A stretch of 64,000 nt of DNA, taken from an uncultured Actinomycetes bacterium (lineage in GTDB: Bacteria; Actinomycetota; Thermoleophilia; RBG-16-64-13). Below the pieces are notes generated by a model. The model worked only from the letters and a program-made list of their open reading frames with translations. It searched no databases and was not told where the DNA came from. How positions within the stretch are numbered: position 1 is the first letter of the stretch; each line of letters starts with the position of its first letter. The position numbers and the translations under genes were made by a program. The DNA is taken from assembly GCA_903873715.1 (NCBI GenBank), contig CAIQPS010000074.1, positions 2,976-66,975 on the forward strand. The letters run 5' to 3'. Shown piece after piece: positions 3,232 to 59,241 of the stretch.

Positions 3232-3410
3232 ATGTTTGTACCCCTCTGCCTGGACGGCGGCTGCGGGTCGCCGTTAGGGGTTGAAATATACAGAGTGGTT
3301 ACTAACGGCGCAACGCCGCGTGGGTAGAACTGAGGCGGGGTCCATTGTGCGTCCGGCCAGGCGTATCGCGTGGTGACACCGGTGCCGCCGCGGCGCCGGC
3401 CGGCGGCCGC

Positions 3411-4385
3411 TCAGTGGCGGTGCAGGCCCCCGTTCGCGCCGTTCTGCTTGAGCGCCACGGGCACGAGGTCGCAACTGCTGCCCGCGCACTGGCCGCCTTC
3501 GTCCTCGAGTTCGACCGTGACGTGGCCCACGCCGAACTGCCTGGCGAGCACGTCTTTGACGCCGGTCATGACGGCTCCCAGCTCGGACAGCGCCGCATCC
3601 GCCACCACGACATGTGCCGAAAGGGCAAGGTCGGTGGAGGAGATGGACCAGATATGCAGGTCGTGAACGCCTTTGACGCCCGGGACGGCCCCCATGGCCT
3701 CGACCACTTCGCCGAACTCGACACTCTCCGGCGTGCCCTCCATGAGCACGTTGACCGCCTTCCTCACAATCGCTATCGCCTCCCGCCCGATCCACAGCGA
3801 GACGAGCACCGACACGATGGCGTCCGCATAGCTCCAGCCTGTCAAGTACACGACGAGGCCGCTGATCATGACCCCCAGGCTGGTGACCGCATCGCCCAGA
3901 AGATGAAGGAAGGCACTGCGCAGATTGAGGTCGCCTCCGTGGGCCCGAAGTAGCAGCGCTGCGATCCCGTTGATGACCAGGCCTGCCCCGGCGAAGGCCA
4001 CCACGAGGAGTCCCTCCACTGAGTGGGGCCCCAGCATGCGCCGGACCGCCTCGACGATGATGTACACCGAGATGGCCACCAGTACCGTCGAGTTGAAGAG
4101 GGCCACCAGGATCTCGGAGCGCTTGTACGCGAACGTGCGGCGAGGGTTGGCCGGCCTTCTCCCGAGCCGGACGGCCCACAGGCTCAGGCCCAGGGCCACC
4201 ACGTCGCTCAGGTTGTGCGCGGCATCCGACAGGAGGCCGAGGCTGTTCGCCAGGATCCCGCCGACCACCTGCAGAAGCGTGATGAGCAGGTTGAGAGCGA
4301 GGCTGAGTATCAGCCGGCCGTCGGGCGCGGACGGGATGGTGGTGCCGCGCGGGGCGGGATGGCCGTGGTCGTGTGGGTCGGTCAC
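3411..4385 (-). CDS. Cation diffusion facilitator (CDF) family metal efflux transporter (CzcD-like)
   Basis: C-terminal ~325 aa of a fused 681-aa ORF. Six TM helices with HNLSD and HLLGD metal-binding motifs and a C-terminal cytoplasmic domain. GTG start at 4383-4385 overlaps the stop of the upstream MBL gene. The N-terminal 350 aa of the long ORF is an out-of-context Arg/Gly-rich frame. Confidence 0.85.
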   Translation of the reverse strand: MTDPHDHGHPAPRGTTIPSAPDGRLILSLALNLLITLLQVVGGILANSLGLLSDAAHNLSDVVALGLSLWAVRLGRRPANPRRTFAYKRSEILVALFNSTVLVAISVYIIVEAVRRMLGPHSVEGLLVVAFAGAGLVINGIAALLLRAHGGDLNLRSAFLHLLGDAVTSLGVMISGLVVYLTGWSYADAIVSVLVSLWIGREAIAIVRKAVNVLMEGTPESVEFGEVVEAMGAVPGVKGVHDLHIWSISSTDLALSAHVVVADAALSELGAVMTGVKDVLARQFGVGHVTVELEDEGGQCAGSSCDLVPVALKQNGANGGLHRH

Positions 4386-12714: not shown

Positions 12715-12933
12715 GGGAGGCCCTTCCTGGGACGTGCGTTCCGGTGGCGACGATCGTCACAGACACTAACCACGGAGTCCCCGGGCGTCAAGGGAGAAGC
12801 CTGAGCCGCGGGTGGTGCGGCGCCTGTCGTGCGAGGTCCTCCTAGCGGCCCCCCGTCTTCGCCGCTAAGATGGTGTCTCGTGCCGGGCCTTCCGCCCCGC
12901 ATGTCTGCCGATCCCGCGTGGAGGTTGATATCG

Positions 12934-13611
12934 ATGCCCGTGTTCGACCCAGAGATAGTCCACGAATGCTCCATGGAATGCCTGGGCGCGCCCAAGCCGG
13001 AGATGTTCGACATCTTCGCCCGGTCGCTCGCCAAGCACTATCCCGGGGTCCTGGACTTCGACCAACCGTGGGTGTACAGCATCGCCGGCGGGGCGATGAT
13101 CCAGATGAAGCTCTACTACGCCTCGGCGACCGAGTACATCATGATCTGGGGGACGCCCATCGGGTCGGAGGGGCACTCGGGACGGCACTTCACCGGCTTC
13201 TGGGATACCGTCATCGACGGTGAGATGTGGTACTACGGCGAGGGCGAGTTCGAGAAGAAAGTCTACAAACCGGGTGACCGCGTCTACGTGGGCCCCGGCC
13301 AGGCCCGGGCGATGAACTTCACCGACGGCGTGTGGGCCGTCGAGTACGCGCGGGGCTTCATCCCCGCCAGCGTGCCCTTCGGCATCATGTCCGAGATCGT
13401 CGTCTGCTGGGACTTCCTCACGGCCGGCCAGACCCTCACCCTGTACGCCGACCTGATGTCGCAGTCGATAGGCCAGAAGTACCCGCAGGTGAAGCCGATC
13501 ACCGACACCATCAGCCGGCTGGCCGGCAAAGCGACCAAAGCGCTGGTGCCCGCGCCCGAGGTGAGCCGCATCCCGCAGAAGAACATCCGCTGGTTCCAGC
13601 GGAACACGTGA
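12934..13611 (+). CDS. ERG2/sigma-1 receptor family protein (bacterial homologue of C-8 sterol isomerase/sigma-1 receptor)
   Basis: EYIMIWGTPIGSEGHSGRHFTGFWDTVIDGEMWYYGEGEFEKKVYKPGDRVYVGPGQARAMNFTDGVWAVEYARGFIPASVPFG closely parallels the sigma-1 receptor/ERG2 cupin-like core. Start at ATG 12934 with a GGAGG 11 nt upstream; an alternative ATG lies at 12901, and the ORF-track start at 12829 is unlikely. Confidence 0.7.
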   Translation: MPVFDPEIVHECSMECLGAPKPEMFDIFARSLAKHYPGVLDFDQPWVYSIAGGAMIQMKLYYASATEYIMIWGTPIGSEGHSGRHFTGFWDTVIDGEMWYYGEGEFEKKVYKPGDRVYVGPGQARAMNFTDGVWAVEYARGFIPASVPFGIMSEIVVCWDFLTAGQTLTLYADLMSQSIGQKYPQVKPITDTISRLAGKATKALVPAPEVSRIPQKNIRWFQRNT

Positions 13612-22410: not shown

Positions 22411-22413
22411 TAG

Positions 22414-22487
22414 TACGCCTGACTGGATTCGAACCAGTGACCTTTGGTTTCGTAGACCAACGCTCTATCCAACTGAGCTACAGGCGC
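22414..22487 (-). tRNA. tRNA-Arg (anticodon ACG)
   Basis: Minus-strand sequence GCGCCTGTAGCTCAGTTGGATAGAGCGTTGGTCTACGAAACCAAAGGTCACTGGTTCGAATCCAGTCAGGCGTA folds as a cloverleaf with anticodon loop CTACGAA. CCA is not encoded. Confidence 0.85.
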
Positions 22488-22491
22488 ACGC

Positions 22492-22585
22492 TGGCGGAGA
22501 AGGAGGGATTCGAACCCTCGATAGGAGCATTCACTCCTACACTCGCTTAGCAGGCGAGCGCCTTCAGCCTCTCGGCCACTTCTCC
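22492..22585 (-). tRNA. tRNA-Ser (anticodon GCT), type II with long variable arm
   Basis: GGAGAAGTGGCCGAGAGGCTGAAGGCGCTCGCCTGCTAAGCGAGTGTAGGAGTGAATGCTCCTATCGAGGGTTCGAATCCCTCCTTCTCCGCCA. Anticodon loop CTGCTAA; CCA is encoded. Confidence 0.85.
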
Positions 22586-51029: not shown

Positions 51030-51063
51030 CGAAGCGAGCGCCTTGTGCATGAGCCGCCCATAG

Positions 51064-51150
51064 CGGAGGGGAAGGGATTCGAACCCTTGAGACCTTGCGG
51101 CCTGCCGGTTTTCAAGACCGGTGCAATCAACCGAACTCTGCCACCCCTCC
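51064..51150 (-). tRNA. tRNA-Ser (anticodon TGA), type II
   Basis: GGAGGGGTGGCAGAGTTCGGTTGATTGCACCGGTCTTGAAAACCGGCAGGCCGCAAGGTCTCAAGGGTTCGAATCCCTTCCCCTCCG. Anticodon loop CTTGAAA (UGA reads UCA, so Ser not Sec). Confidence 0.85.
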
Positions 51151-51300
51151 GGGTCACGGCGCTGCCCATGCGGGACCGCGGGCCGTCGCCCGGAGTATAG
51201 CCTCTGACCCGCGGGGCGTCCGTCAGGCGCCGGGACAACCTGCCGGGATCGCCCAGCACCGGGCTCGCGGGTCGCCGGCCCGCCGGTCGCCGGTGGGGCG

Positions 51301-51990
51301 TTAGAACGTGCCGGTGCTGACGGCCGTGCCCCAGACGACCAGCGCCAGCACGATGATGATCATCACCAGCACCCAGAACGCCACGCCGATGCCGAAGCTG
51401 ATCCAGCTCCACATCTTGGCCTTGCGGGACGCCTCCTGGGCCCCGTAGACATCGCCCATGGCGAGCAGGTTGCCCACCTTGGTGGCGTAGACGATCGCCA
51501 CGATGCCGGTGGGCCAGAAGCACAGTATCAGCGTGGCGATGGCCCAGCCGAGATGGCTCGGGACGTGCGGGACCACCCCCTGGTTGTACGCAGGCGGATA
51601 GCCGGGCTGCTGATAGCCTGCCGGCGGATAGTAGGCCCCCGGCTGACCGGGCGCCTGCTGGTAGGGCGGGGCCTGCTGGTAGGGCGGCGGGGTCTGGTAT
51701 GCCTGCCGGTACTGCGGCTCGTAGGGCGGAGGTGGGGTCGCCGGGGCGCCTGCGGGAGGCGTCTGGGCAGCCGTGTCGGCCGGGATCTCTTCGGCTGCGG
51801 GTTCGGCCGCCGGTTCGAAAGCGGGGACGGCCTCAGCGGCGGCCACGGGCTCGGCTGAGGCCGGCGTCTGGGCCGCTTCATCCGCCGCAGGAGCGGACCA
51901 CTGCTCCTTGTACTTCCTCAGGTCGGTCCCGCAGTTGGCGCAGAAGGCGGCGCTCTCGTCGTTGGTGGCGCCACATTGTGGGCAAAACAT
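51301..51990 (-). CDS. CD225/dispanin family membrane protein with N-terminal zinc-ribbon and Pro/Tyr/Gln-rich linker
   Basis: MFCPQCGATNDESAAFCANCG zinc ribbon, PPPYEPQYRQAYQTPPPYQQAPPYQQAP low-complexity linker, and C-terminal two-TM CD225-like domain (HLGWAIATLILCFWPTGIVAIVYATKV). Confidence 0.7.
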   Translation of the reverse strand: MFCPQCGATNDESAAFCANCGTDLRKYKEQWSAPAADEAAQTPASAEPVAAAEAVPAFEPAAEPAAEEIPADTAAQTPPAGAPATPPPPYEPQYRQAYQTPPPYQQAPPYQQAPGQPGAYYPPAGYQQPGYPPAYNQGVVPHVPSHLGWAIATLILCFWPTGIVAIVYATKVGNLLAMGDVYGAQEASRKAKMWSWISFGIGVAFWVLVMIIIVLALVVWGTAVSTGTF

Positions 51991-52059
51991 ATGCGCCTCT
52001 CTTCTCATGCTCGGGGTCGCGTGATGCTAGGTTTATCACAAAGCGTTGGGGAGGTTGAT

Positions 52060-52485
52060 GTGGCTACGTCCGAGACGAACGAACGGATCCAACGGCTGGT
52101 CGCGGGGGACCGCCTGATCGCTCTCTACGGGATACAGGTGGAGGAGGCTTCCGAAAGCCTGGCTCGGGTGTCGGCGGTGGTCACGGAGGATTTCCTCCAG
52201 GTGCACGGCCTGGCCCACGGGGCGTTCATCTTCGCTCTGATAGACGTCGCGTTCGCCCTGACCGTCAACGCCCGGCTGGATGCCGTGGCGGTGCAGTGGA
52301 GCGTCAGCCAGTTCCGCTCGGGTCAGCTGGGGGAGACGCTCACCGCCGAGTGCCGGCTGCTGCACGGCGGGCGCCGCATGATGGTGGTCGACCTGGTGGT
52401 GACCGGCGCGGAAGGGCGGGTCATCGCGAAAGGACAGGCCACGGCGATACCGGTGGGGGAGGCGGCTTCGCCTTCGCGGGGGTAG
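52060..52485 (+). CDS. PaaI/hotdog-fold acyl-CoA thioesterase
   Basis: GTG start 5 nt after GGGGAGG. HGLAHGAFIFALIDVAFALTVN and the hotdog central helix. The ORF-track start at 51976 is unlikely. Confidence 0.75.
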   Translation: MATSETNERIQRLVAGDRLIALYGIQVEEASESLARVSAVVTEDFLQVHGLAHGAFIFALIDVAFALTVNARLDAVAVQWSVSQFRSGQLGETLTAECRLLHGGRRMMVVDLVVTGAEGRVIAKGQATAIPVGEAASPSRG

Positions 52486-52605
52486 GGCGCAGCCAAGCCG
52501 CCGTCTTCCGCTCCGCCGGCAGCTCGGTCGGCCCTAGCGACACCACCGCGATCTATCGCCGATTCGGGGATCGACCGGACTGTGCCGAGAACGGCGCCGG
52601 GCGCG

Positions 52606-52659
52606 AAGAGTGCAGTAGTACACTCTAGAGAGTCCTATACTCTACTGAGTCTTACTCTC
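52606..52659. promoter_or_regulatory. AT-rich palindrome/AGAGT-ACTCT repeat cluster upstream of kaiC (putative operator/promoter)
   Basis: AGAGTGcagtagtaCACTCT perfect palindrome at 52606-52625, followed by agagagtcctatACTCTactgagtcttACTCTcc. This is the most AT-rich spot of the window, about 160 nt upstream of the kaiC start. Confidence 0.4.
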
Positions 52660-52820
52660 CAGGTCGCGTGCCAACCACTCGTTCAGCGACACCGGCGGGG
52701 TCTCCGCGCCTCACGGGGAGCGCGTGCTGGTGATCGACCGCCAGGTGAACAGGGCGTTGCGGGCCGGGGGCGAAAAGAGGTACCGGCCGAGTGTGGGCTA
52801 GCAGGAAGATGAGGGCTCGA

Positions 52821-54512
52821 ATGAACAAGATGACCTTGGGTCCCCTGGAAAAGTGCCCTACCGGTATCGAGGGCCTGGATGAGCTGTTGAACGGGGGTCT
52901 CCCCCGAGGGCGGCCGACCCTGGTCTGCGGGTCGGCGGGCTGCGGCAAGACGCTGCTGGCCATGGAGTTTCTGGTGCGCGGCGCCGTGGAGTTCGGCGAG
53001 CCGGGCGTCTTCATGGCGTTCGAGGAGAACGGGCAGGAGCTCGCTCAGAATGTTGCGTCTCTCGGCTTCGATCTGCCGGGTCTCATCGCCGCCAAGAAGG
53101 TGGCGGTGGACTTCGTCAGTGTCGCCCGGGAGGAGATCGAAGCGACGGGCGAGTACGACCTGGAGGGCCTCTTCATCCGCTTGGACCACGCGATCAACTC
53201 GGTCGGCGCCAAGCGGGTGGTACTGGACACCGTCGAGTCGCTCTTCTCGGGGCTTCCTCACCCCATGATCCTGCGCGGCGAGCTTCGCCGCCTGTTCCGT
53301 TGGCTGAAGGAGAGGGGGGTGACGGTCATCATCACGGGAGAGCGTGGCGAAGGCTCGCTCACCCGGCAGGGTTTGGAAGAGTATGTCTCCGATTGCGTCA
53401 TCCTCCTCGATCACCGTATCGTCGAGCAGATCTCCACACGGCGGCTGCGCGTGGTCAAGTACCGTGGCTCGACTCACGGCACCAACGAGTACCCCTTCCT
53501 CATCGGTGAGAAGGGCTTCTCGGTGCTGCCCATCACCTCCCTGGGCCTGCAGCATGTCGCCCGCAACGAGAGGGTCTCGACCGGCGTCCCCCGTTTGGAC
53601 GCCATGTTGGGCGGCAACGGATACTATCGCGGCAGCACCGTGCTGGTGTCCGGCACCGCCGGCTGCGGCAAGACCAGCCTCGCGGCACATTTCGTCGACG
53701 CGGCCTGCGCGCGGGGCGAGCGGGCCCTCCTTTTCGCTTTCGAGGAATCGCCCAGTCAGATCGTGCGCAACATGCGGTCCATCGGCATAGACCTCCAGCC
53801 CGCAGTGGATGCAGGGTTGCTGCAGTTCCATGCGGCCCGTCCGGCCATGCATGGCCTTGAGATGCACCTGGCGGCCATGCTCAGGGCTATCGACGAGTTC
53901 GAGCCGGCCGTCGTGGTCGTAGACCCCGCGAGTGCCTTCGTGGTCGCCGGCAACGACTACGACGTCAAGGCCATGATGATGCGCCTCGTGGACTATCTCA
54001 AGACGAAGGGCATCACTGCGCTCTTCTGTGCCCTTACCGCCGGTGAGCAGCTCGAAAGCAGCGACCTCGCAATCTCCTCGCTGATCGACACCTGGCTGCT
54101 CCTGCGCGTCATCGACCTTGCCGGCGAGCGCAACCGGGCGCTGTACCTGCTCAAATCGCGCGGCATGTGGCATTCCAACCAGATCCGCGAGTTCGTGCTG
54201 ACCGATCAAGGCGTCGATCTGGTGGATGTCTACGTGGGGCCGGCAGGGGTGCTGACCGGCTCGGGCAGGATGGCGCAGGAGGCGGCCGAAAAGGCCGCGA
54301 CGCTGGCGCGCCAGCAGGAGATCGGCCGTCGCCGGCGGGATCTTGAGCGCAAGCGCCTGGCGCTGGAGGCTCAAATAGCGGCTCTGCGGGTGGCCTTTGA
54401 AGCCGAGGAGGCCGAACTGGAGGAAGCGATCAGGCAAGGTGAGGACCGAGAGTCGGTGCTGGTGGAGGACCGGGTGGATATGGCCCGACTCCGCCACGCG
54501 GATCAAGTCTAG
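52821..54512 (+). CDS. kaiC: Circadian clock-type KaiC (double RecA-like ATPase) with C-terminal coiled-coil extension
   Basis: Two KaiC domains, each with Walker A (GSAGCGKT; GTAGCGKT) and catalytic EE (AFEENG; AFEESP). A Ser-Ser pair at the S431/T432-equivalent position (ISSLIDTWLLL). About 60-aa C-terminal extension with heptad-like charged/Ala/Leu pattern (AQEAAEKAATLARQQEIGRRRRDLERKRLALEAQIAALRVAFEAEEAELEEAIRQ). Confidence 0.9.
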   Translation: MNKMTLGPLEKCPTGIEGLDELLNGGLPRGRPTLVCGSAGCGKTLLAMEFLVRGAVEFGEPGVFMAFEENGQELAQNVASLGFDLPGLIAAKKVAVDFVSVAREEIEATGEYDLEGLFIRLDHAINSVGAKRVVLDTVESLFSGLPHPMILRGELRRLFRWLKERGVTVIITGERGEGSLTRQGLEEYVSDCVILLDHRIVEQISTRRLRVVKYRGSTHGTNEYPFLIGEKGFSVLPITSLGLQHVARNERVSTGVPRLDAMLGGNGYYRGSTVLVSGTAGCGKTSLAAHFVDAACARGERALLFAFEESPSQIVRNMRSIGIDLQPAVDAGLLQFHAARPAMHGLEMHLAAMLRAIDEFEPAVVVVDPASAFVVAGNDYDVKAMMMRLVDYLKTKGITALFCALTAGEQLESSDLAISSLIDTWLLLRVIDLAGERNRALYLLKSRGMWHSNQIREFVLTDQGVDLVDVYVGPAGVLTGSGRMAQEAAEKAATLARQQEIGRRRRDLERKRLALEAQIAALRVAFEAEEAELEEAIRQGEDRESVLVEDRVDMARLRHADQV

Positions 54513-54543
54513 GAAGAAGCGCTGACCGAGGCGCCATCGACCA

Positions 54544-54930
54544 GTGGCGGATGAGTCGGGTCGCGTAGTCGCAAGAGAGAAGGCCGTGGCAGCGAAAGAT
54601 CCTTTCAACTCTCCATCCGATGGGCAGCGCACCGCACCGCCCACCATCTGGGAGCTGCGGCTGTATGTCGCGGGACGAACGCCCAGATCATTGACGGCTT
54701 TCGCGAACCTCAAGGCTATCTGCGAGGAGAATCTGGGCGGCCGGTACACCCTCGAGGTGATAGACCTGCTCGAGAACCCGCAATTGGCGGCGGGGGACCA
54801 GATCCTGGCCATACCCACTCTGGTGCGCAGGCTACCGCCGCCCGTGCGGAAGATCATCGGCGACCTATCGAACACGGAGCGCGTGCTGGTGGGGCTGGAC
54901 TTGAGGACCGCTAGGGCCGTAGAAGAATGA
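54544..54930 (+). CDS. kaiB: KaiB (thioredoxin-like fold clock protein), copy 1 with N-terminal extension
   Basis: [83 protein letters not shown] matches KaiB along its whole length. About 40 extra N-terminal residues. Confidence 0.85.
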
Positions 54931-54943
54931 GAAGGAGATACCG

Positions 54944-55327
54944 ATGCTCCCGATGAAACCCCCCGAAGACAGTGCGATGGCCTCTGAGCGCGCGCTGGCA
55001 GAGTCACGGTCGACGGCTCCCACCTATGTTCTGCGGCTCTATATTGCCGGCAGCAGCCACGTGTCGGCCCGAGCGGTCGCCAACATCATGGAGATCTGCG
55101 AGACGCACTTACAGGGACGCTACGAACTGGAGGTGATCGACCTCTACCAGCAGCCCACTTTGGCCGAAGGCGAACAGATCATCGCCGCGCCCACGTTGAT
55201 CAAGAAGCTGCCTGCCCCTCTGCGCCGCATCATCGGTGACATGTCCAACACCGAAAAGGTGCTCGTAGGGTTGGACCTGCGCAAGAAGGAAAGCGATGCC
55301 AGAGGCATCACCAAAGTCAAGGAGTGA
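54944..55327 (+). CDS. kaiB: KaiB, copy 2
   Basis: LRLYIAGSSHVSARAVANIMEICETHLQGRYELEVIDLYQQPTLAEGEQIIAAPTLIKKLPAPLRRIIGDMSNTEKVLVGLDL. Confidence 0.85.
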   Translation: MLPMKPPEDSAMASERALAESRSTAPTYVLRLYIAGSSHVSARAVANIMEICETHLQGRYELEVIDLYQQPTLAEGEQIIAAPTLIKKLPAPLRRIIGDMSNTEKVLVGLDLRKKESDARGITKVKE

Positions 55328-57455
55328 GCTCCAACGGGAGAATCGGGAACTGCGCTCCCGTCTGGAAGAGGCCGAGGAGGCCCTGGACGCCATCCGAAGC
55401 GGCGCGGTAGACGGGATCGTAGTCAACACCGAGCGGGGGAACCGAGTCTTCACCTTGGTAGGAGAAGATCACCCCTACCGGCTGCTGGTCGAGGAAATGG
55501 CGGAGGGGGCCCTCACTCTGACCCCCGAGGGGGTCATCCTCTACGCCAACGGTCGCCTCGCGCGTCTACTTCGGGTCCCCCTGGAGACGATCATCGGTTC
55601 CTCCCTGTATTCGTGGGTCGCACCCATCGACGGAGAGGCCCTCCGGCGGTTTCTTCAGAAGGGTGACGACGGGAGGAGCTTCATCGAACTGCGCCTCGTT
55701 GCCGGTGACGACGTCCAGGTCGCAGTCAGTCTCTCGGTGAGCGCTCTGAACGCGGAGGACGGGTTCGGTTCTTACTGTGTCGTCGTGACCGACCTGACGG
55801 AGCACAAGCGCGCAGAGGCTGCCGTCGCGGCCGAGGAGTTGGCGCGCGTCAGGCTGGAGGAAGCGGAGCGGTCGCGCCGTGCCCTGGTCAGATTGGTCGA
55901 GGACGAAAAGAGGGCGCAGGACGCCCTCAGATTGACGCAGATCTCAGTGGATGGCGCGGCGGACATGATCGCGTGGATGGACCGTTACGGGCGGCTGCTC
56001 TACGCGAACAGCGCGTTCTGTCGGCGCCACGGATTCTCGCGCGAGGAATTGGTCGACAAGACCGTGTTCGACGTGGACCCGGGACTGTCGGCGGAGCGGT
56101 GGCTCGAGCAACTCCCTGGGCCGGAAGAGGGCGGTTCTCGAGTCTTCGAAGGACTGGGATACGACCGGGGCGGGAGCGCGTTCCCGGTGGAAGTCACCCT
56201 CACCCGCTGCGAGCACGATGGCGAAGAGTACTTCTTCAGATACGAGCGCGACATCTCCGAGCGCAAGCAGGCAGAGGCGGCTCTCCGCCAGCAAGAAGAA
56301 CAACTCCGCCAAAGCCAGAAGATGGAGGCCGTCGGGCAGTTGGCCGGAGGCATCGCACACGATTTCAACAATCTCATGTGTGCGGTCATCGGCTACAGCG
56401 AACTCCTTCTGGCCTCTCCCGAGCTCTCCGGCTCTCCGGCCCGGGAAGACGTGGAAGAGATCAGGCGCGCAGCGGACCGTGCCGCCGCGCTCACAGCGCA
56501 GATCCTCGCCTTTTCTCGCAAGCAGGTCCTCCAGCCGACGGCGGTGTCTCTGAACCAGGTCCTGTCCGACATGGAGCCCCTACTGCGGCGGACCCTGGGC
56601 GAGCACCTCGACCTGTCGGTGTTGGCCTACCCAGATCTGGGCACCTGCGAGCTGGACGTGCACAAGTTCGAACAGGTGCTTATGAACCTGGCCCTGAACG
56701 CGCGGGACGCCATGGGGCCGGGAGGTCGTCTCACGCTGGAGACCGCCAACGTGGAGTTGGATGCCACCTACTGCGAGGGCCACGCGGACGTCACCCCCGG
56801 CCCCTACGTCATGCTGGCCGTTTCCGACACCGGGGCAGGCATCCCTGCCGACATTCTTCCCCACGTGTTCGAGCCCTTTTTCACCACCAAGCCGACCGGT
56901 CAGGGCACCGGCCTCGGGCTCTCCACCGTCTACGGCATCGTCCGGCAGAGCGGCGGACATGTCTTCCTGTACAGCGAACCGGGCAGCGGGGCCACCTTCA
57001 AGGTGTATCTGCCCCGGATCGCTGCGCCCGCGCCTGCGGCGGCGGTCTCGATGGAGTTCGTCGGAGAGACCCAGGGCACCGAGGCCGTTCTGGTGGTGGA
57101 GGACGAGACGGGGGTGCGTGACCTTGTCTGCCGGGCGCTTGGGTCTCAGGGCTACGAGGTACTGGGCGCTGCGAGCGGGGCAGAGGCTCTAGGTTTGGCC
57201 GCCCAGCGCGACGCTCGGATCGATCTGCTCCTCACCGACTTGGTCCTTCCTGGCGCGATCCAGGGAGTCGAGGTGGCCGACCGTCTGCGGGCCTCTCGGC
57301 CCGACATACTCGTTCTCTACATGTCCGGTTACACTCGCAACGCCATCGAGCACGCGGGCCGGCTGGACCCGGACGTGGACTTCTTGCCGAAGCCGTTCAC
57401 TCTTGAGGAACTGTGTGCCAACGTGAGGGCCGTGTTGGACAACCACCGCCGGTGA
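55296..57455 (+). CDS. PAS-domain hybrid sensor histidine kinase/response regulator (two PAS, HisKA, HATPase_c, C-terminal REC)
   Basis: N-terminal coiled coil and two PAS domains. H-box [12 protein letters not shown] boxes ([25 protein letters not shown]), and a receiver domain ([10 protein letters not shown] ... KPF). Overlaps the end of kaiB2 by 32 nt. Confidence 0.85.
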
Positions 57456-57681
57456 TCCTCAGATAGCGGTCGTCCGGTTCTGGACGTGGCGACTCCGCCT
57501 ATTGGCCGAGCCGATCGGCCTCGACGCCGGCCAAAGGCTTGAGGGCCGGCCTCGCCGTCGCTTTCCTAGGCCCGCTTCCAGATGTAGAAACACCGGCGGG
57601 AGATTCCGCGACGACGACAGGCTAGCGAGATGTTCCCCGACTCCTCGGCATAGCGAAGAACTGAAGTCGTGGATCCCATGG

Positions 57682-59241
57682 CTAGGCCCCGTTCCCCGGC
57701 CCGGTGGGCAGCACGCCCGGGGCCTGGCGGATCATCCGTAGCTTCTCTGCGGCCAGTCTGGGCGACAGGCCGACGGCGTAGATCTCCGGGTTGCGGAGCC
57801 TGCGGACCTCTTCCGGCAGTGACGCCACCTGTTCTCCGGCGCGGGCCCGGATGTCGGCGAGCGCCGGCGCGGGAGCCACCCTCTTGCCACCTGCCATCAC
57901 GGTGACGAGCAGGTCCTCGCAGCGCGACGCGTCCCAGACCGCCCGCAGGAACGACAGGTCCTGCCGTTCGGCGAAGGGCACCGGCGCAGCCGGCTGGCCA
58001 TGGTCGATACTGTCGACGGGCTCGGAATCCAAGCGGATCAGGTCGGCCAGCGGCCGGCCGGTCTCGTCGTAGTAGCGCACCAGGCGCTTGCGGCCGGGGT
58101 CCGTCATCTTGGCCGGGTTGGACGACAGCTTGATGCGCGGCACCCAGTCACCGCCGGCCTCCTGCACCGCCACCAGCTTGTATACGCCGTTCAGGGCGGG
58201 GTGCCCGGAAGAGGTGATGAGATGAGTCCCCACGCCCCAGGAGTTGATGCGCGCCCCCTGCCGTTTGAGGTCGGCGATGAGGTCTTCGTCCAGCTCGTTC
58301 GACGCCACGATGAGCGGGTCGTTGAAGCCCGCCTCGACGAACATCTGATAGGCCGCCTTGCTCAGCCGGGCAAGGTCGCCGGAATCGAGCCGCACCGCGG
58401 CGCGCGCCGGGTTGCCCGCGGCGCGCAACTCCTTGAAGAGCGCCACCGCGTTGGGAAGCCCGGACCGGAGCGTGTCGTAGGTATCCACCAGAAGCACCGG
58501 CCTGGGATAGCAGGCGGCGTATGCCCGGAAGGCCTCCAGCTCGTCGTTGAAGCTCATCACCCAGGAGTGGGCGTGGGTGCCCCGCACTGGTATGCCGAAC
58601 AGCTTGCCGGCCAGCACGTTGGAGGTGCTGTCCGCTCCGCCGATGAAGGCCGCCCGGCTGCCGCTGAGCCCGCCGTCTGGGCCCTGGGCGCGGCGCAGGC
58701 CGAACTCCACCAGTTCGTCGGTGCCGCACGCCAGCCTTATGCGCGCCGCTTTGGTGGCTATGAGCGTCTGGAAGTTGAGGGTGTTGAGCGCCACCGTCTC
58801 GAGCAACTGGGCCTCGAGCAGCGGCCCTTCCACCTGCAGCACCGGCTCGTGCGGGAACACGACCGTCCCCTCCGGCACCGCTTTGATGGTGCACTGGGGC
58901 CGGAACGATTCGAGGTACTCCAGGAAGTCGTCGTCGAACGTCTTGAGGCCGGCGAGGTAGTCGAGGTCCTGGCGGGTGAAGTGCAGGTTCTCGATCTGGT
59001 CGAGGAGTTGCTCCAGCCCCGCGGTGATGGCGAACCCGTTGTGGGCGGGCAGGTCGCGGAACGTGTAGTCGAAGCAGGCGCGCAGGTCGCGGCGGCCGGC
59101 TTTGAGGTAGCCGCCCATCATGGTCAGCTGATAGTAGTCGGTGAGGAGCGCCAGGTCCTCGCGGCGGGCCCACCGCTGGGAGACGTCGCGGCCGGCGGTG
59201 CCGGGCGCGGGGCCGGTCCGGGGGTCCCGGTCAGTCGTCAT
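57682..59241 (-). CDS. pncB: Nicotinate phosphoribosyltransferase
   Basis: 519 aa with NAPRTase family features (LTDYYQLTMMGGY, HAHSWVMSF, type II PRTase fold). Confidence 0.85.
   Translation of the reverse strand: MTTDRDPRTGPAPGTAGRDVSQRWARREDLALLTDYYQLTMMGGYLKAGRRDLRACFDYTFRDLPAHNGFAITAGLEQLLDQIENLHFTRQDLDYLAGLKTFDDDFLEYLESFRPQCTIKAVPEGTVVFPHEPVLQVEGPLLEAQLLETVALNTLNFQTLIATKAARIRLACGTDELVEFGLRRAQGPDGGLSGSRAAFIGGADSTSNVLAGKLFGIPVRGTHAHSWVMSFNDELEAFRAYAACYPRPVLLVDTYDTLRSGLPNAVALFKELRAAGNPARAAVRLDSGDLARLSKAAYQMFVEAGFNDPLIVASNELDEDLIADLKRQGARINSWGVGTHLITSSGHPALNGVYKLVAVQEAGGDWVPRIKLSSNPAKMTDPGRKRLVRYYDETGRPLADLIRLDSEPVDSIDHGQPAAPVPFAERQDLSFLRAVWDASRCEDLLVTVMAGGKRVAPAPALADIRARAGEQVASLPEEVRRLRNPEIYAVGLSPRLAAEKLRMIRQAPGVLPTGPGNGA

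Follow-up and report, generated by a model that had tools for sequence, protein, structure and literature searches.

What kind of Kai system is encoded where kaiC is followed by two kaiB genes and a sensor kinase gene in an actinobacterial genome? We addressed this question for a 64,000-nt stretch of DNA from an uncultured actinobacterium (GenBank assembly GCA_903873715.1, contig CAIQPS010000074.1, positions 2,976–66,975; hereafter, the window). A preliminary description, made from the sequence alone, had reported a KaiC, two KaiBs (KaiB1 and KaiB2) and a PAS-PAS hybrid histidine kinase/response regulator whose start overlaps kaiB2, and all four genes were confirmed on the plus strand by Pfam and NCBIfam searches (Table 1). 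The locus belongs to a widespread two-KaiB variant of the KaiC2 system and reached this genome by horizontal transfer. We consider it probable that this horizontally acquired kaiC-kaiB(I)-kaiB(II)-PAS hybrid kinase operon, of the KaiC2/Rhodobacter sphaeroides type, encodes a KaiA-independent, energy-charge-driven phospho-switch, an "hourglass" and not a self-sustained clock. The cyanobacterial clock has been proposed to descend from a KaiA-free KaiBC hourglass. To our knowledge, such an hourglass has so far been dissected in one organism only, with a single KaiB.

The KaiC is a complete protein with both CI and CII domains, as had been described. PF06745 matches it twice (E = 4e-105), and the NCBIfam model NF006799 scores 727.5 bits against a cut-off of 408. 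The motifs are intact in both domains, with the Walker A sequences GSAGCGKT (residues 37–44, CI) and GTAGCGKT (residues 278–285, CII) and the catalytic Glu-Glu pairs 68/69 and 308/309 (FEE, residues 67–69 and 307–309). The closest solved KaiC is that of R. sphaeroides (KaiC-RS, PDB 8DBA), to which the protein aligns without gaps over 549 columns with 56.3% identity (E = 8e-205, 685 bits); the ATPase core is 60.7% identical, the A-loop/linker 38.5% and the coil 32.3%. The preliminary description had placed a Ser-Ser pair at the phospho-site position, and indeed S419/S420 (numbering of the 563-aa protein) share columns with S413/S414 of KaiC-RS; in the phosphomimetic structure 8FWI, Glu-Glu takes the place of these two serines. 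The Ser-Ser pair, the Walker A Lys and the catalytic Glu-Glu are invariant across 63 KaiC homologues. In a Foldseek search with the KaiC model, 8FWI, 8FWJ and 8DBA rank first, and their alignments, 527–551 columns long, take in the tail.

Cyanobacterial KaiC scores about 349 bits against this protein, and the archaeal single-domain PH0186 matches it with E = 3e-36. TIGR02655, the equivalog model for cyanobacterial circadian KaiC, gives 360.6 bits, below its cut-off of 546.25, and the phosphosite is Ser-Ser, not Ser-Thr. What defines the KaiC2 subgroup is a pair of serines together with a C-terminal tail some 50 aa longer; in KaiC1 and KaiC3 the phosphosite pair is Ser-Thr (PMC10076222). The Ser-Ser site, the tail, the closeness to KaiC-RS and the missed TIGR02655 cut-off thus place the protein in the KaiC2 subgroup; judged by its sequence, it is a KaiC of the KaiC2/KaiC-RS type. 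A single-domain archaeal KaiC-like or RadA-like ATPase, which the preliminary description had named as the identity that would undo its interpretation, was rejected, since the models for such proteins all stay far under their cut-offs (TIGR03880, 186.7 against 249 bits; RadA, 57.9 against 403).

The KaiC had also been credited with an extra C-terminal segment of ~60 aa. The segment is present, and its size relative to Synechococcus elongatus KaiC is about 56 aa: the alignment with 8DBA runs to residue 568 of the 573-aa maximal open reading frame (ORF), and alignments with S. elongatus KaiC end at residue 493. The 120 best KaiC homologues are all 562–620 aa long, and almost none of them has a Pro or Gly within residues 483–537. 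AlphaFold2, run with 63 homologues, predicts residues 480–562 as one unbroken helix (predicted local distance difference test, pLDDT, 79–87 over residues 491–540) and not as a disordered tail. The proposed connection between this extension and a KaiA-independent hourglass has its basis in the literature and needs one correction: in KaiC2 it is the exposed A-loop, not the coil itself, that permits KaiA-independent autophosphorylation (PMC10076222). In KaiC-RS, the tails assemble into a 12-helix coiled-coil bundle, which holds two hexamers together as a dodecamer and tunes dephosphorylation, and the ATP:ADP ratio is the driving cue of this hourglass (PMC10076222).

No kaiA is present in the window, in agreement with the preliminary description. 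The S. elongatus KaiA sequence, verified against the PDB, was searched against all 64 kb by tblastn and phmmer (six frames, maximum sensitivity) with a best E-value above 1, and Pfam scans found no KaiA domain in 40 other ORFs of the window. KaiA3-type proteins do exist outside cyanobacteria, where they occur with KaiB3/KaiC3 and not with KaiC2 (PMC11372060). The gapless alignment with KaiC-RS, including the Ser-Ser pair and the helical extension, makes a KaiA-independent hourglass a well-founded reading, and this reading is already published for the KaiC2 class.

Both KaiB proteins match PF07689 (E = 3e-28 for KaiB1 and 2e-27 for KaiB2), and the top PDB match of KaiB1 is R. sphaeroides KaiB (KaiB-RS; 8FWJ_M, E = 1e-29). 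Their cores are 62.7% identical (52/83), so that about 37% of positions differ, very near the 38% first given; over the full length they are 47% identical. For comparison, we used the 80 nearest loci of GTDB species representatives, whose KaiCs are 62–68% identical to the query. These loci span Chloroflexota, Acidobacteriota, Bacteroidota, Nitrospira, Planctomycetota, many Pseudomonadota, Myxococcota and a Methanoperedens archaeon, and none of the 80 bears an Actinomycetota label. A downstream kaiB accompanies 70 of the kaiC genes in this set, 36 of them with two kaiB and 34 with one. In a neighbour-joining tree, the KaiBs at position 2 form one clade (clade II), and those at position 1 form another (clade I) together with the single KaiBs, KaiB-RS and the cyanobacterial KaiBs. 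The nearest neighbour lies in the same clade for 66 of 66 clade-I and 38 of 39 clade-II sequences, and identity averages 0.72 among clade-I sequences, 0.60 among clade-II sequences and 0.55 across the two clades. These separate ancient clades, and the identity of only 43–64% in same-locus pairs, rule out a recent local duplication of kaiB. The two KaiBs are thus ancient paralogues, as two old clades with a conserved gene order indicate, and not the product of a duplication in this genome, as had been supposed. Nor is a tandem kaiB pair next to kaiC unusual, another point on which the preliminary description was mistaken: it occurs in many phyla at about half of the kaiB-bearing kaiC genes above, and it dominates the independent metagenome sample described below.

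The clade-II KaiBs share a signature: the residue ahead of the first strand is Tyr, not Trp, an IDxYQ motif is present, the LP motif is preceded by Lys, not Arg, and the N-terminal extension carries a semi-conserved FExAL motif. KaiB2 has the clade-specific residues Y28, Y68, Q69 and K87, and its 27-aa N-terminal extension contains SERALAE, a degenerate copy of the FExAL motif. N-terminal extensions had been reported for both KaiBs and both exist; that of KaiB1, however, is probably ~14 aa shorter than the maximal ORF implies. An alternative in-frame start, GTG 54586, would give a KaiB1 of 114 aa and fits the Met position in 77% of the clade-I homologues. This GTG is the likelier start, because the clade-I start Met aligns to residue 14/15 of the maximal ORF. 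The Gly/Asp pair equivalent to G88/D90 of S. elongatus KaiB, mutation of which locks the fold-switched state, is kept in both proteins (G117/D119 in KaiB1, G109/D111 in KaiB2), and the Gly is conserved at 0.94 across clade I and 0.87 across clade II. A Cys in an ICEE motif (C60 of KaiB1, ~54721–54723; C52 of KaiB2, ~55097–55099) is invariant in both KaiB clades of the KaiC2-type systems, is also present in KaiB-RS and is Leu in cyanobacterial KaiB; a redox role for it is conceivable.

A search with KaiB2 returned natural, clean in-frame fusions of KaiB-I and KaiB-II, about 200 aa long and with KaiB-I first (P0244, P0246 and P0248; also P0245, P0247 and P0249). Four further fusion-like KaiB proteins resemble frameshift artefacts. 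In two independent assemblies (L088, 5573–6181; L089, 3766–4374), P0248 is flanked by kaiC and by a PAS hybrid kinase gene that overlaps it. The existence of such fusions suggests that KaiB-I and KaiB-II act together physically. An AlphaFold2 model of the fusion P0244, made with a 6-sequence alignment, was too poor for its fold state or packing to be read (mean pLDDT 51.7; predicted template modelling score, pTM, 0.34). The KaiC encoded before the fusion in L088 and L089 is 510 aa long and has no C-terminal extension, and the fusion P0245 is an orphan adjoining topoisomerase VI genes (L087).

The fourth protein of the locus contains PAS_4, PAS_9, HisKA, HATPase_c and Response_reg domains by Pfam and NCBIfam, and its kinase core is CckA-like (5IDJ, E = 2e-57). 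The catalytic residues are in place, with H355 in HisKA, the G1 and G2 boxes, and D648 and K699 in the receiver domain (REC). That this kinase belongs with the Kai genes, as the output of a timing or signalling module, had been proposed, and the linkage proved to be well beyond chance in both directions. In the forward direction, the N-terminal module of the kinase (residues ~5–172, 28–53% identity) is present in 46 of the 65 loci that have an ORF after the last kai gene, and it was matched in 0 of 6 loci without kaiB. The proteins that bear it range from 235 to 1218 aa, and the module is followed by nothing (in the 235-aa proteins), by kinases or by other long multidomain proteins, one of them with GAF domains. 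The consensus of 47 proteins encoded downstream of kaiB reads LRxRLxEAEETLxAIRxGEVDAxVV...QVYTLxGADxPYRxLVExMxEGAxTL. In the reverse direction, JGI metagenome contigs were scanned with a hand-made degenerate DNA pattern for AIRxGEVDAxVV, and a kaiB was found at most 700 nt upstream on the same strand in 63 of the 69 occurrences with at least 500 nt of upstream DNA; chance alone explains two of the six exceptions. Where at least 1300 nt of upstream DNA was available (44 loci), 35 loci have two kaiB (one of them as a fusion), two have three, three have one and four have none. The forward (46/65) and reverse (63/69) linkage indicates that the head of the kinase is a dedicated Kai-associated module. 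All four parts of the cassette are co-inherited across phyla, and kaiC-kaiB-kaiB-module is the prevailing layout outside cyanobacteria.

A kinase or GGDEF gene after kaiB has been reported in nearly all non-cyanobacterial clusters (PMC3164672), and a kaiC-kaiB-PAS/histidine kinase operon occurs in R. sphaeroides and Rhodopseudomonas palustris (PMC4794148). No description of a tandem or paralogous kaiB pair outside cyanobacteria, or of a Kai-specific PAS module, was found in a limited literature search. We also found no solved structure close to the N-terminal module (residues 1–185; best E about 0.01). A SasA-type kinase was ruled out by the lack of a KaiB-like domain: SasA has a KaiB-like thioredoxin-fold N-terminal domain, whereas residues 1–185 of the window kinase consist of a helix and PAS_4. 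PRK09303 matches KaiB2 weakly and does not match the kinase. PAS domains of the cyanobacterial protein KidA bind KaiB (PMC9478674), which makes docking of the kinase head on KaiB a reasonable guess. The cassette is also found on a contig of an archaeal metagenome-assembled genome (MAG; Candidatus Methanoperedens, L083). Other arrangements include kaiC-kaiB-kaiB-kaiC-kaiB (L080), three kaiB genes (L118 and L171) and two tandem genes that each bear the N-terminal module (L138).

The host is actinobacterial, as the impression of a high-GC Gram-positive-like genome had suggested: the seryl-tRNA synthetase of the window is 79–91% identical to MAG proteins labelled Thermoleophilia, Actinobacteria RBG_16_64_13 and Actinomycetota. 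The genes flanking the cassette are ordinary housekeeping genes. Two sister contigs share the gene order of the window, with CARDB, DUF4446, prephenate dehydratase, seryl-tRNA synthetase, isochorismatase, nicotinate phosphoribosyltransferase (NAPRTase), 4HBT and Zn-ribbon/CD225, but in them the NAPRTase gene directly abuts the 4HBT gene. The sister genome L086 aligns up to window position 52463 and resumes at 57695, with about 80 nt between these points there compared with 5.2 kb here. The G+C content at third codon positions (GC3) is 0.76–0.84 in the four kai genes against 0.89 ± 0.05 in 41 other genes (Mann-Whitney p = 0.0025), and the nearest KaiC relatives are 73–76% identical, those with names coming from Anaerolineae or Chloroflexi MAGs. 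The sister genomes without the cassette at the same site and the lower GC3 indicate that the cassette was acquired horizontally. The tandem KaiB arrangement had been called unusual for a Gram-positive-like genome. This holds for the host, whose sister genomes are without the cassette, but not for the tandem layout, which is common.

Contigs from other samples (L001 and L002) are 99.95% identical to window positions 51054–57402 and then diverge (in L001, from 6347 onward). In the L001-type contigs, the kinase is 747 aa long, its last REC helix is replaced by out-of-frame sequence, and a cardiolipin-synthase-like gene stands in place of the NAPRTase gene. The divergence at 57402 is either a strain-level variant or an assembly artefact or chimera. 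The independent assembly L001 confirms the left junction of the cassette; for the right junction, the window contig is the only source.

Among the known systems, the KaiBC hourglass of R. sphaeroides (8DBA, 8FWI, 8FWJ; Pitsawong et al. 2023, PMC10076222) is alike in having a KaiC 56% identical to ours with a Ser-Ser pair and a ~50–60-aa extension, in the kaiC-kaiB-PAS/histidine kinase order, in a KaiB that is the closest to KaiB1 among solved structures, and in the lack of KaiA (here, in the window). It differs in several ways: the window has a second, clade-II KaiB between kaiB and the kinase gene, its KaiBs have N-terminal extensions and the 92-aa KaiB-RS chain does not, the coils are 32% identical, and the window host is a probably non-phototrophic member of Actinomycetota with a horizontally acquired cassette. 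The proto-circadian KaiC-KaiB system of R. palustris (Ma et al. 2016, PMC4794148) likewise has a kaiC-kaiB-PAS histidine kinase operon, probably with a single promoter, and no KaiA; unlike the window, it has one kaiB and belongs to a phototroph with KaiC-dependent fitness under light-dark cycles, a comparison that is drawn from the description in that paper and not from sequence. Cyanobacterial KaiABC shares with the window a related KaiC (349 bits) and related KaiBs (93–104 bits to those of S. elongatus and Thermosynechococcus elongatus), the Gly/Asp pair and a Kai-coupled histidine kinase, but the window is without KaiA, has Ser-Ser for Ser-Thr and falls short of TIGR02655 (360.6 < 546.25). 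KidA provides a precedent for PAS contact with KaiB, and in our loci the PAS module almost always comes directly after kaiB; KidA is a multi-PAS tuner of the KaiABC period and not a kai-operon kinase (PMC9478674).

If the window proteins work as KaiBC-RS does (PMC10076222), KaiC hexamers would pair into a dodecamer via their C-terminal helices, and CII would autophosphorylate S419/S420 without KaiA, the A-loop being held exposed. Fold-switched KaiB would then bind CI of phosphorylated KaiC and speed ATP hydrolysis, a fall in ATP:ADP would lead to dephosphorylation, and the cycle would need an environmental reset. For the remaining steps, comparative genomics is the guide. Both KaiB paralogues may act jointly on KaiC, as the conserved order, the 13-nt spacing and the I-II fusions suggest; the helix/PAS module of the kinase may dock on the KaiB-KaiC complex; and the state of KaiC would set the autokinase activity, followed by a REC phosphorelay to partners encoded elsewhere.

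Several points weigh against this hourglass interpretation. Its mechanism would be carried over from KaiBC-RS, which is a one-KaiB system. The coil segment aligns with KaiC-RS without gaps at an identity of only 32%, and the AlphaFold2 model of KaiC is a monomer with a pTM of 0.46. Hydrophobic enrichment at heptad a/d positions, in the best register, was equalled or exceeded by 3409–4325 of 5000 shuffles. A Fourier analysis of the 120-sequence profile gave a peak at period 2.3 (7/3) with an uncorrected p of ~0.04–0.06, which is not significant against the maximum over periods. Because neither statistic is significant, the coiled coil rests on the homology to 8DBA and on the AlphaFold2 helix. 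No Hpt protein and no stand-alone response regulator was found among the window genes scanned, and the sequence does not show which way signalling runs, with the kinase as its output or its input. The loss of the last REC helix in the L001-type kinase suggests that the module is perhaps dispensable or decaying in part of the population. Finally, since the host is probably non-phototrophic, a cue from the day-night cycle is not evident.

The same proteins could form a stress or energy-state response module without timing, in which KaiC would report the ATP:ADP or redox state to the kinase. We regard this as rather unlikely, even though it suits an uncultured member of Actinomycetota with no sign of phototrophy in the window and a cassette shared with many anaerobic or sediment lineages and with a Methanoperedens archaeon. 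Stress roles have been proposed for KaiBC in Legionella and Pseudomonas, and a clock-independent role for Synechocystis KaiB2C2 (PMC11372060); however, KaiC and KaiB1 stand much nearer to their R. sphaeroides counterparts, with 685 and 106 bits, whereas the KaiBs score only 55–66 bits against Legionella KaiB. The biochemistry is, moreover, common to an ATP:ADP hourglass and an energy sensor, so that the two differ mainly in physiological use. In a further alternative, the PAS kinase is an input: its PAS domains would sense redox, oxygen or a metabolite, and the kinase/REC would act on KaiBC. An oxygen- or redox-sensing input role has been suggested for the PAS kinase of R. sphaeroides (PMC10931921), the window kinase has two PAS domains, and many related loci have an extra PAS kinase upstream of kaiC. 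Yet only the N-terminal helix and PAS1 are conserved and Kai-specific, and the downstream parts vary, a pattern that fits a docking module serving varied effectors. SasA and CikA are kinases that act as clock outputs, and with this precedent as well we consider an input kinase unlikely.

The cassette might be recently transferred cargo outside host regulation, non-functional or decaying. The insertion relative to two sister genomes, the lower GC3, a weak transposase-like remnant at the edge, a population variant with a disrupted REC C-terminus, and nearest KaiC relatives that are only 73–76% identical and come from Chloroflexota MAGs would all be expected of such cargo. Against this, the four ORFs are intact with every catalytic residue kept, the ribosome-binding sites and the translational coupling are preserved, and the 99.95% identity of the cassette over several samples shows that it is stably carried. 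We find inert cargo improbable.

Taken alone, the window adds one more member to a known, widespread family, and its point of interest is the second KaiB. The locus shows that the KaiBC hourglass machinery has moved into Actinomycetota, and from the comparison the usual non-cyanobacterial layout is seen to consist of kaiC, two old KaiB paralogues and a protein with a specific helix/PAS module. We tentatively put forward, as a possibility that falls short of an expectation, that the clade-II KaiB is non-redundant and serves the commonest non-cyanobacterial Kai system as a third core component, pairing physically with the clade-I KaiB on the KaiC ring. Together with the helix/PAS module, it might form a conserved unit of KaiC, KaiB-I, KaiB-II and PAS effector that behaves unlike the one-KaiB R. 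sphaeroides hourglass, for example with KaiB-II gating the docking of the kinase, as its adaptor or antagonist. Should the second KaiB and the module have distinct roles, current models of a "primordial" Kai timer lack components. The system is small enough for reconstitution in vitro.

The coordinates of the locus are collected in Table 1. The 563-aa KaiC that starts at ATG 52821 is the product called by gene callers on near-identical contigs. The spacing between kaiC and kaiB1 is 31 nt (73 nt with the later kaiB1 start) and that between kaiB1 and kaiB2 is 13 nt; the kinase ATG overlaps kaiB2 by 32 nt and is preceded by an AAGGAA ribosome-binding site. From this spacing, we read the four genes as one operon.

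Table 1. Features of the kai locus, in window coordinates (position 1 is the first letter of the 64,000-nt stretch).
Feature	Position	Strand	Description
kaiC	52821–54512	+	563 aa; likely start ATG 52821, ORF opening GTG 52791; stop at 54512
kaiB1	54544–54930	+	128 aa, maximal ORF; PF07689; clade-I KaiB, KaiB-RS orthologue
kaiB2	54944–55327	+	127 aa; PF07689; clade-II KaiB; ribosome-binding site GAAGGAGA
Hybrid histidine kinase	55296–57455	+	719 aa; helix + PAS1 + PAS2 + HisKA + HATPase_c + REC
Inserted 5.2-kb kai cassette	52464–57694		Flanked by the 4HBT thioesterase and NAPRTase genes, whose 3' ends converge on it
Ser419-Ser420 codons, predicted phosphorylation pair	54075–54080	+	Alignment columns of KaiC-RS S413/S414
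KaiC C-terminal extension, residues 480–562	54258–54506	+	Single long helix in AlphaFold2; coiled-coil arm by homology
Kai-linked N-terminal kinase module, residues 1–185	55296–55850	+	Coiled-coil-like helix, AIRSGxVDxxVV motif, PAS1
Non-coding leader, putative promoter region	52606–52790	+	No ORF starts there; inferred function
37-aa ORF, transposase-HTH-like	57569–57679	-	MGSTTSVLRYAEESGNISLACRRRGISRRCFYIWKRA; possible remnant at the right edge of the cassette

The preliminary description began the cluster at 52606. The genes it assigned to the cluster stand, and 52606–52790 is non-coding upstream DNA that is not part of KaiC. This leader opens with an AT-rich island (52606–52660, about 40% GC against 66% GC of the genome), ~130 nt 5' of GTG 52791, in which we read a perfect palindrome, CTCTAGAG, and three TAC(A)CTCT-like repeats. 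The island may be a promoter or operator. A simple sigma-70 consensus scan upstream of kaiC found no promoter, and an Rfam scan of the kaiC leader gave no match. At the cassette borders, no terminal direct repeats, inverted repeats or target-site duplication were found. The 37-aa ORF near the right border has matches below the cut-offs to the helix-turn-helix (HTH) models HTH_28 (E = 0.0017) and HTH_Tnp_1 (E = 0.0056) and may be the remnant of a mobile element.

A tRNA-Ser(tga) gene (51063–51150, minus strand) stands 1.3 kb left of the cassette; contig L001 begins just left of this gene, at window 51054. A pair of genes for tRNA-Arg(acg) and tRNA-Ser(gct) is found at 22413–22585, also on the minus strand. 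Elsewhere in this actinobacterial MAG contig, positions 12829–13611 of the window (plus strand) encode a protein with a strong match to PF04622 (ERG2/Sigma-1 receptor-like, E = 1e-46), a family best known from eukaryotic sterol isomerases.

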